Shown: piece by piece, positions 3,813 to 9,874 of the stretch
Layout of the letters: each line of letters opens with the position of its first letter
How positions within the stretch are numbered: position 1 is the stretch's first letter
IMG/VR virus record: IMGVR_UViG_2711768008_000004
Origin: a virus
Taxonomy: Duplodnaviria; Heunggongvirae; Uroviricota; Caudoviricetes
Strand: one strand, 5' to 3'
Length of the DNA: 9,874 bases
The notes under the pieces: model-generated
Database searches by the model: none
What the model was told of the DNA's origin: nothing
Seen by the model: only the letters and a program-made list of their open reading frames with translations
Program-made: the position numbers and the translations under genes

Positions 3813-3889
3813 GGCCCTTTAGCTCAGTTGGTCAGAGCGAGCGACTCATAATCGCCAGGTCGCTGGTTCAAGTCCAGCAAGGGCCACCA
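3813..3889 (+). tRNA. tRNA with anticodon CAU, ileX/ileZ-like (probable tRNA-Ile2, lysidine-modified, reads AUA; tRNA-Met not excluded)
   Basis: Cloverleaf folded by hand: acceptor GGCCCTT/AAGGGCC, D-arm AGCTCAGTTGG, anticodon loop CTCATAA, T-loop GGTTCAAGTCC, discriminator A, encoded CCA. Near-identical to E. coli ileX as I recall it. Confidence 0.85.
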
Positions 3890-3890
3890 A

Positions 3891-3967
3891 CCACCACTAG
3901 CTCATCCGGATAGAGCATCAACCTTCTAAGTTGACGGTGCGAGGTTCGAGTCCTCGGTGGTGGGCCA
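3891..3967 (+). tRNA. tRNA-Arg (anticodon UCU, reads AGA/AGG)
   Basis: Acceptor CCACCAC/GTGGTGG, anticodon stem TCAAC/GTTGA, loop CTTCTAA (anticodon TCT), T-arm CGAGG-TTCGAGT-CCTCG, CCA encoded. Starts 1 nt after the previous tRNA. Confidence 0.85.
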
Positions 3968-3969
3968 GC

Positions 3970-4045
<76 letters not shown>

Positions 4046-4048
4046 TAT

Positions 4049-4123
<75 letters not shown>

Positions 4124-4258: not shown

Positions 4259-4621
4259 NNNNNNNNNNNNNNNNNNNNNNNNNNNNNNNNNNNNNNNNNN
4301 NNNNNNNNNNNNNNNNNNNNNNNNNNNNNNNNNNNNNNNNNNNNNNNNNNNNNNNNNNNNNNNNNNNNNNNNNNNNNNNNNNNNNNNNNNNNNNNNNNNN
4401 NNNNNNNNNNNNNNNNNNNNNNNNNNNNNNNNNNNNNNNNNNNNNNNNNNNNNNNNNNNNNNNNNNNNNNNNNNNNNNNNNNNNNNNNNNNNNNNNNNNN
4501 NNNNNNNNNNNNNNNNNNNNNNNNNNNNNNNNNNNNNNNNNNNNNNNNNNNNNNNNNNNNNNNNNNNNNNNNNNNNNNNNNNNNNNNNNNNNNNNNNNNN
4601 NNNNNNNNNNNNNNNNNNNNN
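4259..4621. other. Run of 363 N (assembly gap or masked sequence)
   Basis: Uninterrupted n characters from 4259 to 4621. All ORFs crossing it in the six-frame track are artefacts of N translation. Confidence 0.99.
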
Positions 4622-5723: not shown

Positions 5724-6074
5724 ATGCCATCACTAATCCCACGTGCCTGCCGTAAGCGTGGATGTGCAGGTACAACCACAGACAGTTCGGGTTACTGCGA
5801 TAAACATCGCGGTGAAGGCTGGGTGCAGCACCAGCGCGGACTGAGCCGCCACCAGCGTGGCTATGGCTCAAAATGGACGGTGATTCGTGCCCGTATTCTG
5901 AAGCGCGATAAAGGTCTGTGTCAGTTGTGTCTGCGTGTCGGTGTGGTGAGCGAGGCGAAAACCGTCGACCACATCATCCCGAAAGCGCATGGCGGAACAG
6001 ACGCAGACAGCAACCTGCAGAGTCTGTGCTGGCCCTGCCATAAAGCGAAAACAGCGCGCGAACGAATCCGGTGA
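5724..6074 (+). CDS. HNH endonuclease (terminase-associated)
   Basis: 116 aa. Cys-rich zinc-finger-like N-terminus (CRKRGCAG…YCDKH). HNH motif DHIIPKAHGGTDADSNLQSLCWPCHKAKT. GAGG at 5715-5718. Sits immediately upstream of the terminase small subunit, as in HK97-like phages. Confidence 0.85.
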   Translation: MPSLIPRACRKRGCAGTTTDSSGYCDKHRGEGWVQHQRGLSRHQRGYGSKWTVIRARILKRDKGLCQLCLRVGVVSEAKTVDHIIPKAHGGTDADSNLQSLCWPCHKAKTARERIR

Positions 6075-6096
6075 TAATTATTCTCACTTGTAGGGA

Positions 6097-6156
6097 GGGG
6101 CGGGGCAAATCCCTGTGACCTGACGTCTTCCGGACTGCCCGCCCCATCGTTTTTTT
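6097..6156. other. GC-rich dyad symmetry plus T-run between HNH and terminase genes; candidate cos site and/or intrinsic terminator
   Basis: GGGGCGGG (6097-6104) pairs with CCCGCCCC (6138-6145) around a ~33-nt interior that holds palindromes GACGTC (6122-6127) and TCCGGA (6129-6134). A T7 run follows at 6150-6156. In HK97-like genomes cos lies between the HNH gene and terS. Confidence 0.3.
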
Positions 6157-6195
6157 ATACCCGCGAAAAATGAAATTTAACCAGGAGTGCCGCAT

Positions 6196-6690
6196 ATGGC
6201 TGGAACGGCGGGGCGTTCCGGGCGTCGCCCCAAGCCAACGGCGCGCAAGGCGCTGGCCGGAAACCCCGGCAAGCGAGCCCTGAACAAAGATGAACCTGTT
6301 TTTACGCCCATCAAAGGTGTTGAGCCACCAGAGTGGTTCGCTGAAGAAGATCTCCCTCTCGCCACGATCATGTGGCAACTGACAACCAAAGAACTCTGCG
6401 GTCAGGGCCTGCTGTGCGTGACTGACCTGGCGGTACTTGAGCGGTGGTGCGTGGCCTATGAGTTCTGGCGACGTGCCGTGAAAAATATTGCCATACAGGG
6501 CAACACCATCACCGGTGCAATGGGCGGCAGGGTCAAAAATCCGGAGCTGACCGCCAAAAAAGAACAGGAGTCCGAGATGAGCAGCACGGGGGCAATGCTC
6601 GGACTCGACCCCAGCAGCCGCCAGCGTCTGATTGGCCTGGCGGGGCAGAAGAAAGCCACTAACCCGTTTCTGAAAATTATCGAATCATGA
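6196..6690 (+). CDS. Terminase small subunit (P27-family-like)
   Basis: ATG 6196 with AGGAG at 6183-6187 (8-nt spacing). Basic N-terminus ([22 protein letters not shown]). About 164 aa. Stop overlaps the terminase large subunit start (ATGA at 6687-6690). Family assignment is from memory and position. Confidence 0.75.
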
Positions 6691-8420
6691 GCCGGAAATC
6701 TTACCCCAACGTAAATGCTGCAAATCAGTATGCCCGGGATGTCGTGCGCGGAAAGATTGTTGCCTGCCAGTTTGTGATTCAGGCCTGCCAGCGCCATCTT
6801 GATGACCTGATGGCGGAAAAAAGTAAGTCGTTTCGTTACCGCTTCGACAAGGACCTGGCTGAACGGGCCGCGAAATTTATTCAGCTGTTGCCGCACACCA
6901 AGGGGGAGTGGGCATTCAAACGGATGCCCATCACGCTGGAGCCGTGGCAGCTATTTGTGATCTGCTGTGCGTTTGGCTGGGTCAATAAAGGCACCCGGTT
7001 GCGCCGCTTCCGGGAGGTGTACACCGAAATCCCCCGTAAGAACGGCAAATCAGCAATCTCTGCCGGTGTTGCCCTGTATTGTTTTGCCTGTGATAACGAG
7101 TTTGGCGCGGAAGTGTATTCCGGTGCCACGACAGAGAAACAGGCGTGGGAAGTCTTTCGCCCGGCGCGACTGATGTGTAAACGCACACCCATGCTGACGG
7201 AAGCGTTCGGGATTGAGGTTAACGCCTCAAACATGAACCGTCCGGAGGATGGCGCGCGGTTTGAACCGCTGATCGGCAACCCAGGTGATGGTTCATCACC
7301 CCACTGTGCCGTGGTTGATGAATATCACGAGCATGCCACCGATGCGCTTTATACCACAATGCTTACCGGGATGGGGGCGCGACGTCAGCCACTGATGTGG
7401 GCCATCACCACCGCCGGGTACAACATTGAGGGGCCGTGCTACGACAAGCGGCGGGAAGTCATCGAGATGCTCAACGGCTCGGTGCCTAACGATGAACTGT
7501 TCGGGATCATCTATACCGTTGATGAAGGTGACGACTGGACCGGCCCGCAGGTGCTGGAAAAAGCCAATCCAAATATTGGCGTGTCGGTTTATCGCGAATT
7601 TTTGTTAAGTCAGCAGCAGCGTGCGAAAAATAACGCCCGTCTGGCAAACGTCTTTAAAACAAAACACCTCAATATCTGGGTGTCGGCGCGTTCGGCGTAT
7701 TTCAACTTGGTGAGCTGGCAGAGCTGCGAGGATAAATCACTGACCCTTGAGCAGTTCGAGGGGCAGCCGTGCATTCTGGCCTTTGACCTGGCGCGTAAGC
7801 TGGATATGAACAGCATGGCGCGACTTTATACCCGCGAGATTGACGGTAAAACGCATTACTACAGTGTGGCCCCGCGTTTCTGGGTACCGTATGACACGGT
7901 GTACAGCGTCGAGAAAAATGAAGATCGACGGACAGCCGAACGCTTTCAGAAATGGGTGGAAATGGGCGTTCTGACCGTTACCGATGGTGCGGAGGTGGAT
8001 TATCGCTACATCCTCGAGGAGGCCAAAGCGGCGAACAAAATCAGCCCGGTCAGTGAGTCACCCATCGACCCCTTCGGGGCGACCGGGTTGTCACATGACC
8101 TTGCTGATGAAGACCTGAATCCCGTCACTATCGTCCAGAACTTCACCAATATGTCCGATCCGATGAAAGAGCTGGAAGCAGCGATTGAATCGGGACGTTT
8201 TCATCATGACGGCAATCCCATCATGACCTGGTGTATCGGCAACGTGGTCGGCAAAAACATGCCGGGTAACGATGATGTGGTGAAACCCGTCAAAGAGCAG
8301 GCGGAAAACAAAATCGATGGTGCAGTTGCGCTGATTATGGCGGTTGGCAGAGCCATGCTGTACGAGAAAGAAGACACGCTGTCTGACCACATTGAGTCCT
8401 ACGGGATCCGCTCGCTTTAA
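6687..8420 (+). CDS. Terminase large subunit (ATPase plus nuclease)
   Basis: 577 aa. Walker A-like [12 protein letters not shown]. Conserved acidic nuclease-domain residues in the C-terminal half. Gene order HNH - TerS - TerL - portal. Confidence 0.9.
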
Positions 8421-8431
8421 CTGAGGTAATT

Positions 8432-8614
8432 ATGATCATGCTGATTCTCGCGCCTCTGGTGGGCGTGCTGGGTGCGCTTTTGCTGGCGTATGGTGCCTGG
8501 CTGATTTATCCCCCGGCGGGTTTTGTTGTTGCCGGGGCGCTGTGCCTGTTCTGGTCGTGGCTGGTGGCGCGATATCTCGACCGTACACGGCAGTCTGTCG
8601 GCGGAGGTAAATAG
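8432..8614 (+). CDS. Small hydrophobic membrane protein (60 aa, two predicted TM helices); function unknown
   Basis: ATG 8432 with GAGG at 8423-8426. Sequence [60 protein letters not shown] has two hydrophobic stretches and a basic tail. Stop TAG 8612-8614 overlaps a GTG preceded by GGAGG (8603-8607). Confidence 0.5.
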
Positions 8615-9770
8615 TGTTCTTTTCGGGATTATTTCAACGAAAAAGCGATGTGCCGGTGACCACGCCAGCAGAACTGCTGATGCTATCGGGCTGTCATACG
8701 ACACCTATACCGGAAAGCGGATCAGTAGCCAGCGGGCCATGCGCCTGACGGCGGTCTATTCTTGCGTCAGGGTGCTGGCAGAGTCTGTTGGTATGCTGCC
8801 CTGCAGTCTCTACAAAATCAGCGGTACCCTGAAAACACGGGCGGTGGATGAACGACTGCATAAGTTGGTTTCGGCAAAACCTAATGGCTACATGACACCG
8901 CAGGAATTCTGGGAGCTGGTTATTGTCTGCCTGTGTCTACGGGGGAATTTTTACGCCTACAAGGTAAAGGCACTGGGAGAAGTGGTGGAGCTTCTTCCGA
9001 TAGATCCGGGCTGTGTGGAACCGAAGCTGAACAGCCAGTGGCAGCCGGTTTATCAGGTGACGTTTCCGGATGGTTCCGTGGATGTGTTGACCCAGAATGA
9101 AATCTGGCATGTGCGCACCCTGACGCTGGATGGACTTGTCGGGCTGAATCCCATTGCGTATGCGCGTGAGGCCATTTCACTGGCAGCGGCAACCGAGGAG
9201 CACGGTGCCAGGTTGTTTAGTAATGGTGCGGTGACATCCGGTGTGTTGCGTACGGAACAAAAGCTCACGCCGGATGCTTACGAGCGTCTGAAGAAAGATT
9301 TTGAGGAGTGTCACACGGGGCTTGGCAATGCTCACCGCCCGATGATTCTGGAAATGGGGCTGGACTGGAAGTCGATGGCGCTGAACGCCGAGGACAGTCA
9401 GTTCCTGGAAACCCGCAAGTTTCAGCTGGAAGAAATCTGTCGTCTGTTCCGGGTGCCGTTGCACATGGTGCAGAACACCGATCGCGCCACCTTCAACAAT
9501 ATCGAAGAGCTGGGGCTGGGATTTATCAACTATTCACTGGTGCCGTATCTGACCCGCATCGAACAGCGGATCAACACCGGACTGGTACGAAAAAGTAAGC
9601 AGGGCGTTTATTACGCCAAATTTAACGCCGGGGCGTTACTGCGCGGGGATATGAAGTCCCGTTTTGAAGCCTACGCCACCGGGATCAACTGGGGAATTTA
9701 CTCTTCCAATGACTGCCGCGACCTGGAAGATATGAATCCGCGTCCCGGTGGTGTAATGCCGATCAGTTAA
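8614..9770 (+). CDS. Portal protein, HK97 family; 5' end shows a reading-frame discontinuity (probable frameshift or sequencing error near 8700-8720). Uninterrupted in-frame core is 8739..9770
   Basis: Long ORF (frame of 8523..9770) has the portal signature …AMRLTAVYSCVRVLAESVGMLPCSLYK… First well-placed in-frame ATG is 8739, with no RBS. A GTG at 8614 with GGAGG 6 nt upstream opens a different frame that reads MFFSGLFQRKSDVPVTTPAELLMLSGCHTTPIPE… and stops at 8746-8748. The upstream part of the long frame (from ATG 8523) is C/W/R-rich and not protein-like. Confidence 0.8.
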
Positions 9771-9804
9771 GGATCAGTTGACCGATCCAGTGGCTGTGTA
9801 AGAA

Positions 9805-9837
9805 TCCGGAAACGCTCACTTGTTTCCGGATTTTTTT
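9805..9837 (+). terminator. Intrinsic terminator-like hairpin after the portal gene
   Basis: TCCGGAAAC (9805-9813), loop GCTCACTT, GTTTCCGGA (9822-9830), then TTTTTTT (9831-9837). Confidence 0.55.
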
Positions 9838-9874
9838 ATGCACATTGGACAGGCTCTTGATCTGGTATCCCGTT

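Follow-up and report, generated by a model that had tools for sequence, protein, structure and literature searches.

The nearest relatives of the portal gene analyzed here are portal L38 of the Stx2e phage phiP27 (NP_543090.1) and the portal of E. coli A36 (WP_240745495.1). In both, the genes for the large terminase (TerL), a 60-aa membrane protein and the portal follow each other in this order, the GTG start codon of the portal overlaps the upstream stop codon, and the portal is encoded by a single intact ORF of 413 aa, which is followed by the genes for the prohead protease and the capsid. The Shigella phages SfIV and SfII and the Salmonella phage ST64B belong to the same family and show the same gene order, with portal genes that are intact in complete phage genomes. 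As a remnant, the closest analogue is beeE (b1151) of the cryptic prophage e14 of E. coli K-12, where a truncated portal gene is located directly after ymfR and a terminase remnant (ymfN). In the reductive evolution of Shigella, disruption by insertion sequences (IS), IS-mediated loss of neighbouring DNA and subsequent small indels are a standard course of gene loss.

The stretch of DNA analyzed in this work (IMG/VR record IMGVR_UViG_2711768008_000004; 9,874 nucleotides, in the following called the window) belongs to a lambdoid prophage remnant in Shigella sonnei that resembles phiP27, SfIV and e14. The terminase, ymfR-like, portal and IS4 features described below are all located on its plus strand. 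The window contains, in this order, genes for a DnaB-like helicase, RusA, Q, ORF6N, four tRNAs, a lysis cassette, an HNH endonuclease, the small terminase (TerS), TerL, YmfR and the portal. It shares the order of the last three genes and the overlapping GTG start with phiP27 and A36. BLAST gives a nucleotide identity of about 93-94% to both; within portal codons 1-380 the identity is 92.6-92.8%, and only 9-10 of these 380 codons differ at the amino acid level. In contrast to the intact portal ORFs of phiP27 and A36, however, the portal gene of the window carries a deletion after codon 21, and an IS4 element has replaced codons 381-413 together with the downstream genes. The nucleotide identity to SfIV, SfII and ST64B is about 87-89%, and the N-terminal motif MFFSGLFQRKSDAPVTTPAELADAIGLSYDTYTGK is identical in these phages and in the window; their portal genes are intact. 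The e14 gene beeE has the same start and N-terminus as the portal of the window, but retains only about 140 codons, after which a deletion fused the portal to tail-region remnants (jayE), and it contains neither the frameshift at codon 21 nor an IS4 element.

Upstream of the portal, the genes for the HNH endonuclease, a P27-family small terminase and the large terminase are adjacent and uninterrupted (5724-8420). The large terminase gene (6687-8420, 577 aa) is apparently intact and is recognized by the Pfam families TerL_ATPase and TerL_nuclease. Thus, the packaging enzymes outlasted the structural genes in this prophage remnant. Between the large terminase and portal genes lies the ymfR-like gene (8432-8614), which according to the ORF list and its translation encodes a small membrane protein of 60 aa. 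Its stop codon TAG (8612-8614) overlaps the portal start codon GTG (8614-8616) by one base. A ymfR or 'membrane protein' gene is annotated at the same position in E. coli A36, phiP27, ST64B and the e14 prophage of K-12, and the exact 60-aa protein is present in the protein collection as 'protein YmfR' of Shigella sonnei.

Four tandem tRNA genes (Met-CAT, Arg-TCT, Thr-TGT and Gly-TCC; 3813-4123) lie downstream of the Q antiterminator gene, with the ORF6N gene on one side and the lysis cassette on the other. In Stx-converting lambdoid phages, tRNA genes and the toxin genes are found at the equivalent position. The tRNA genes of the window are followed by a run of N at 4259-4621, a scaffold gap of 363 N, which corresponds to 659 nt in finished S. 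sonnei genomes. Since the gap comprises only 659 nt in these genomes, there is no room for an stx operon after the tRNAs. The gap contains most of a 98-aa ORF, for which no Pfam match was found, as well as the beginning of a 71-aa holin gene (PF04971). Among the finished genomes, CP000038.1 is listed as S. sonnei Ss046, and several phiP27-like regions are listed in S. sonnei (PMC5447701).

Reading frames of the portal gene and the one-base deletion

The translation start of the portal gene is found at 8603-8616 and consists of a GGAGG motif (8603-8607) six bases upstream of the GTG codon at 8614-8616. The equivalent GTG is the annotated portal start in A36, phiP27 and SfIV and also in beeE of e14, and this stretch is invariant in a six-way DNA alignment. 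A preliminary description of this sequence had proposed GTG 8614 as the start of a portal gene broken into two reading frames, and in this respect it is borne out by the homologues. The positions it gave for the GTG, the GGAGG motif, the overlap with the upstream stop, the TGA and the run of N also agree with the sequence.

The frame opened by GTG 8614 encodes only 44 aa and ends at the TGA at 8746-8748. The portal body (…KRISSQRAMRLTAVYSCVRV…) lies in another frame, which is open from 8523 to 9770. The only in-frame start codons of the latter are three TTGs at 8523-8529, inside the ymfR-like ORF, and ATG 8739, and the two frames overlap by 72 nt (8676-8748). When the intact 413-aa portal of A36 was used as a tblastn query, aa 1-21 matched in frame +1 (8614-8676) and aa 22-380 in frame +3 (8676-9753). 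Codons 1-21 (MFFSGLFQRKSDVPVTTPAEL) have thus kept the original frame, with 19/21 identical residues, and the stretch from codon 22 to codon 380, comprising the whole HK97-type portal core, is read in the shifted frame with 94% identity. In the protein alignment the two translated pieces abut seamlessly (…TTPAEL/ADAIGLSYDTYTGK…; …PAEL/ADAIGLSY…). Because a single intact homologue matches across both frames, the break is not a chance pattern of ORFs, and the idea that one portal gene is split over two frames holds.

The tail of the 44-aa ORF (8677-8748; …LMLSGCHTTPIPESGSVASGPCA) is out of frame, and the other frame of the same DNA matches portal aa 22-45. No match of the 44-aa product to any Pfam or NCBIfam family was found, nor was it present in a collection of 15 billion proteins. 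The 44-aa ORF is therefore made up of portal codons 1-21 and 23 out-of-frame residues, and its tail is translational noise and not a gene. As had been described before, ATG 8739 is not preceded by a ribosome binding site, since no Shine-Dalgarno motif was found in the sequence upstream of it (GGATCAGTAGCCAGCGGGCC). Judged from the reading frame, a truncated protein starting at this ATG may nevertheless be made, and the corresponding ORF still spans nearly the whole portal HMM core.

The lesion that separates the two frames is the loss of one nucleotide at 8676/8677, where the ancestral CTGGCT (Leu-Ala) has become CTGCT. As a consequence, G8676 serves both as the last base of codon 21 and as the first base of codon 22. 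In DNA alignments, both pairwise and six-way, with the intact homologues of A36, phiP27, SfIV and ST64B there is exactly one gap column, which falls at CTG-GCT, and the E. coli homologues among the matches listed all span 162 nt as compared to 161 nt of the query. The preliminary description had rightly attributed the split to a 1-nt loss, but had placed it, as an example, in the run of A at 8714-8716. This position has to be corrected, because the region 8700-8730 including the A-run is identical in all four intact homologues aligned. The deletion did not fall in a long homopolymer but in a GG dinucleotide.

Restoration of the missing G yields an ORF without any further stop codon. The repaired protein is recognized by TIGR01537 (portal_HK97) with 263.6 bits over aa 39-379, to which model positions 3-343 map (cut-off 112.05), and by PF04860 (Phage_portal) with 359.2 bits over aa 47-373 (cut-off 39.1). 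In comparison to the A36 portal, the repaired ORF contains 67 synonymous and 9 nonsynonymous codon differences, which shows that the portal gene was under purifying selection until recently. The full-length uninterrupted ORF of close homologues (413 aa) is absent from the window as a result of the frameshift after codon 21 and the IS4 element at codons 381-413. The gene is thus a pseudogene that belongs to the HK97-type portal family by descent, and portal function was most likely lost. Of the surroundings of a head module, the upstream HNH, TerS, TerL and YmfR genes are present, with IS4 and then host genes downstream at the locus.

The IS4 junction and the downstream locus

Homology to intact portal genes stops at position 9753. 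The remainder of the window (9754-9874) corresponds to the left end of IS4 (TAATGCCGATCAGTTAAG…) and is ~97% identical to those annotated IS4 copies of E. coli genomes that match it best. The element, which had gone unnoticed in the preliminary description, takes the place of portal codons 381-413, the last 33 of the gene, and contributes the tail of the ORF (VMPIS) together with its stop codon at 9768-9770. The end of the ORF at 9770 is thus a stop inside IS4 and not the natural stop of the portal gene. A joined portal of ~385 aa had been predicted from the two frames, and a protein of exactly this length does exist; however, its length reflects the truncation by IS4, as intact homologues have 413 aa.

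The window ends 121 nt into the element. In finished genomes, the IS4 transposase (442 aa; PF13006 and PF01609) is encoded directly downstream, and the terminal inverted repeats (TAATGCCGATCAGTTAAG…) are 1426 bp apart in the finished genome locus L005. To the right of IS4, host DNA is found: 8 loci continue into the bamE/recN side, and 4 into the raiA/pheA side. The same IS4 copy accordingly has two different right-hand neighbours, bamE-recN in loci of the L003/L012 type and raiA-pheL-pheA in loci of the L005/L017 type, which points to IS-mediated rearrangement between strains. In most assemblies, IS4 is itself interrupted by an IS3-family element; in loci of the L003/L012 type, this interruption reduces the transposase call from 442 to 374 aa.

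A simple insertion of IS4 is flanked by a direct target duplication of about 11-13 bp, and a control copy of IS4 in mlc of the E. coli laboratory strain ME8067 shows a duplication of 13 bp. At the portal locus, neither the remainder of the portal gene nor a target duplication (…CCCGGTGGTG) was found after the right end of IS4 in any of the 12 loci examined, and genes for protease, capsid and tail are absent after the portal at this locus. The lack of a target duplication together with unrelated host DNA in two configurations argues for a secondary rearrangement instead of a simple insertion; it does not count against the identification of the element as IS4. An IS4-mediated deletion or rearrangement would be the most plausible way in which the head and tail genes were removed from the locus. 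The missing 3' end of the portal gene and the head and tail genes could still persist elsewhere in the chromosome next to another IS4 copy, if they were displaced by an inversion rather than a deletion.

The 14 nt to the left of IS4 in the portal gene (window 9740-9753, GCGTCCCGGTGGTG) loosely resemble the target of the independent IS4 insertion in mlc of ME8067 (L022:1601-1614, GCGCCCGCGTTGGTC), a resemblance that may reflect a target preference of IS4.

Distribution of the alleles and probable order of the lesions

Furthermore, the occurrence of both lesions in public genomes was assessed. Loci were retrieved by exact matches to the terminase and 343-aa products of the window, the latter being the product called from ATG 8739, which yielded 20 loci from 18 assemblies. 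The organism names of most of these assemblies were taken from protein names and not from the records themselves. An 81-nt probe sequence across the site with the deletion is identical in 20/20 loci, including that of the finished genome of S. sonnei Ss046 (CP000038.1), and the IS4 junction is identical in every locus long enough to reach it. For the 343-aa product, the collection lists 1695 blocks and at least 1000 contigs, where it is named as a portal protein of S. sonnei. The deletion was not found in any E. coli complete-genome record matching a 161-nt probe, and no E. coli complete-genome record spans the junction between portal and IS4. No exact-pattern match to the deleted allele was obtained in the GTDB species-representative genomes, among which S. 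sonnei probably does not have a representative of its own. Both lesions thus appear to be confined to S. sonnei in the collections searched. The frame break is a real but ordinary mutation, which thousands of public S. sonnei assemblies already contain and which lies in an annotated locus in many of them.

Some of the loci contain further breaks. TerS and TerL are each split in L015, L019 and L020 have a TerL call of 498 aa, and L007 shows a 1-nt indel in the ymfR region. These differences could reflect continuing decay or errors of long-read assembly.

The undeleted allele is also found within S. sonnei. The exact repaired protein of 385 aa, which ends in the IS4-encoded VMPIS, is present in public S. 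sonnei assemblies, and 10 S. sonnei loci combine the GG allele with the same IS4 end. This allele is linked to a second difference at window position 7707 in the large terminase gene, where 9/10 of the GG loci contain C, and the window and Ss046 contain T; in the tenth GG locus, L031, an upstream indel blocked scoring of this position. The change is synonymous, with the Leu codon TTG in the window and Ss046 and CTG in the GG strains and in SfIV. The outgroup SfIV has C at this position in an otherwise identical 62-mer. As SfIV shares the C, the GG/C haplotype is ancestral and the G/T haplotype derived; as both haplotypes share the IS4 junction, the truncation is older than the frameshift. We infer this order by parsimony from the sharing of haplotypes and from one outgroup-polarised SNP; in principle, the GG of the minority lineage could also have arisen by back-insertion of the G.

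Upstream of HNH-TerS-TerL, the GG strains L028 (L028:1-3100) and L029 contain a module with ORF6N+ANT, RusA, NinH, a PF03589-type antiterminator and a 149-aa protein at the position of Rz, where the window contains Q (PF06530), ORF6N and the tRNAs. The differing modules indicate that the remnant is mosaic among S. sonnei lineages.

Probable stepwise decay and alternative readings

The two lesions, their exact positions, their recurrence across assemblies and the intermediate allele with IS4 but without the deletion are observed directly. Taken together, they make a stepwise decay of the prophage remnant, in which truncation by IS4 came first and a neutral frameshift followed, very probable. 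In a first step, an IS4 element would have inserted into portal codon 381. A later IS4-mediated deletion or rearrangement would then have led to the loss of the last 33 codons and of the prohead protease, capsid and tail genes at the locus, so that the right end of IS4 came to meet host DNA. Thereafter, one G of the GG at 8676/8677 would have been lost in the clade that forms most of the sequenced S. sonnei, including Ss046, shifting the frame after codon 21. The 1-nt deletion probably spread with this dominant clade as neutral decay of an already useless gene.

Among the other readings, it could first be argued that the frameshift is the primary inactivating mutation, which rendered an otherwise complete prophage packaging-defective, as had been suggested in the preliminary description. 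The frameshift indeed removes the conserved N-terminus of 42 residues from any product of the main frame, and the upstream terminase genes look intact. That the mutation is inactivating is nominally true, but IS4 also cuts the gene at codon 381, no protease, capsid or tail genes follow, and the assemblies with the undeleted allele already contain the same IS4 junction. The loss of the 3' end and of the head genes thus came earlier and the frameshift is secondary, which makes its role as the primary lesion improbable.

Second, HNH-TerS-TerL and the portal core of 343 aa from ATG 8739 might be retained in S. sonnei and act together with head and tail genes of other phiP27-like prophage regions. 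If active, such a remnant could, for example, support packaging or transfer of DNA or interfere with incoming related phages. The portal HMM core and the terminase ORFs are unbroken in the window. However, the data provide no positive support for this reading, the S. sonnei clone is too young for identity between strains to indicate selection, and several assemblies carry further breaks in TerS or TerL. We therefore consider a retained function quite unlikely.

Even less probable, and in effect refuted, is a sequencing or assembly error, which had also been put forward and according to which the true genome would read GG and the frame break would be an artefact of a draft contig. The contig is a scaffold in which the 363 N stand for 659 nt, and GG is read in a few public S. 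sonnei assemblies. However, the identical deletion in 20 loci from 18 assemblies, with Ss046 among the finished chromosomes, and the occurrence of the 343-aa product on at least 1000 contigs contradict an artefact, the site is not a long homopolymer, and the assemblies that read GG constitute a haplotype of their own, marked by the linked SNP at 7707, rather than random errors.

We likewise see hardly any chance that the region contains two genuine genes, a conserved small ORF at 8614-8748 and a 343-aa portal starting at ATG 8739. Several annotation pipelines do call the 343-aa ORF 'portal protein', and the HMM core is retained in it. On the other hand, the start of the homologues corresponds to GTG 8614, and 19-20 of their first 21 residues recur in the small ORF, of which the last 23 residues match nothing; the 44-aa protein is present in no database, and ATG 8739 is without a Shine-Dalgarno motif. 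The region is covered by 1343 E. coli records and 20 phage records, and none of them was found to have a portal that begins at the equivalent of Met-8739. Finally, programmed ribosomal frameshifting or another form of recoding that restores a full-length portal, for which a -1 shift anywhere in the 72-nt overlap (8676-8748) would give a fusion protein, can practically be dismissed, as no XXXYYYZ heptamer is found in any frame between 8610 and 8750, every intact homologue, among them those of the viable phages phiP27, SfIV and ST64B, encodes the portal in one frame, the two-frame layout is limited to one S. sonnei haplotype, and the recoded product would still be without its C-terminus and partner genes.

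Overall, stepwise decay places the portal gene of the window as one more IS/frameshift pseudogene of Shigella, which does not differ in kind from those known before, but in which the order of the lesions can be read from polymorphism within the species. The importance of this finding goes little beyond annotation. Public S. sonnei records list 'portal protein' calls of 343 aa or 414 aa; these and the 44-aa ORF are all parts of a single pseudogene, for which the exact sites of the lesions are given here. The deletion at 8676/8677 and the linked T at 7707, which was not scorable in L031, form a haplotype of two markers that could be of minor use for marking a clade of S. sonnei. In addition, the locus provides a small worked example of the stepwise decay of a prophage.
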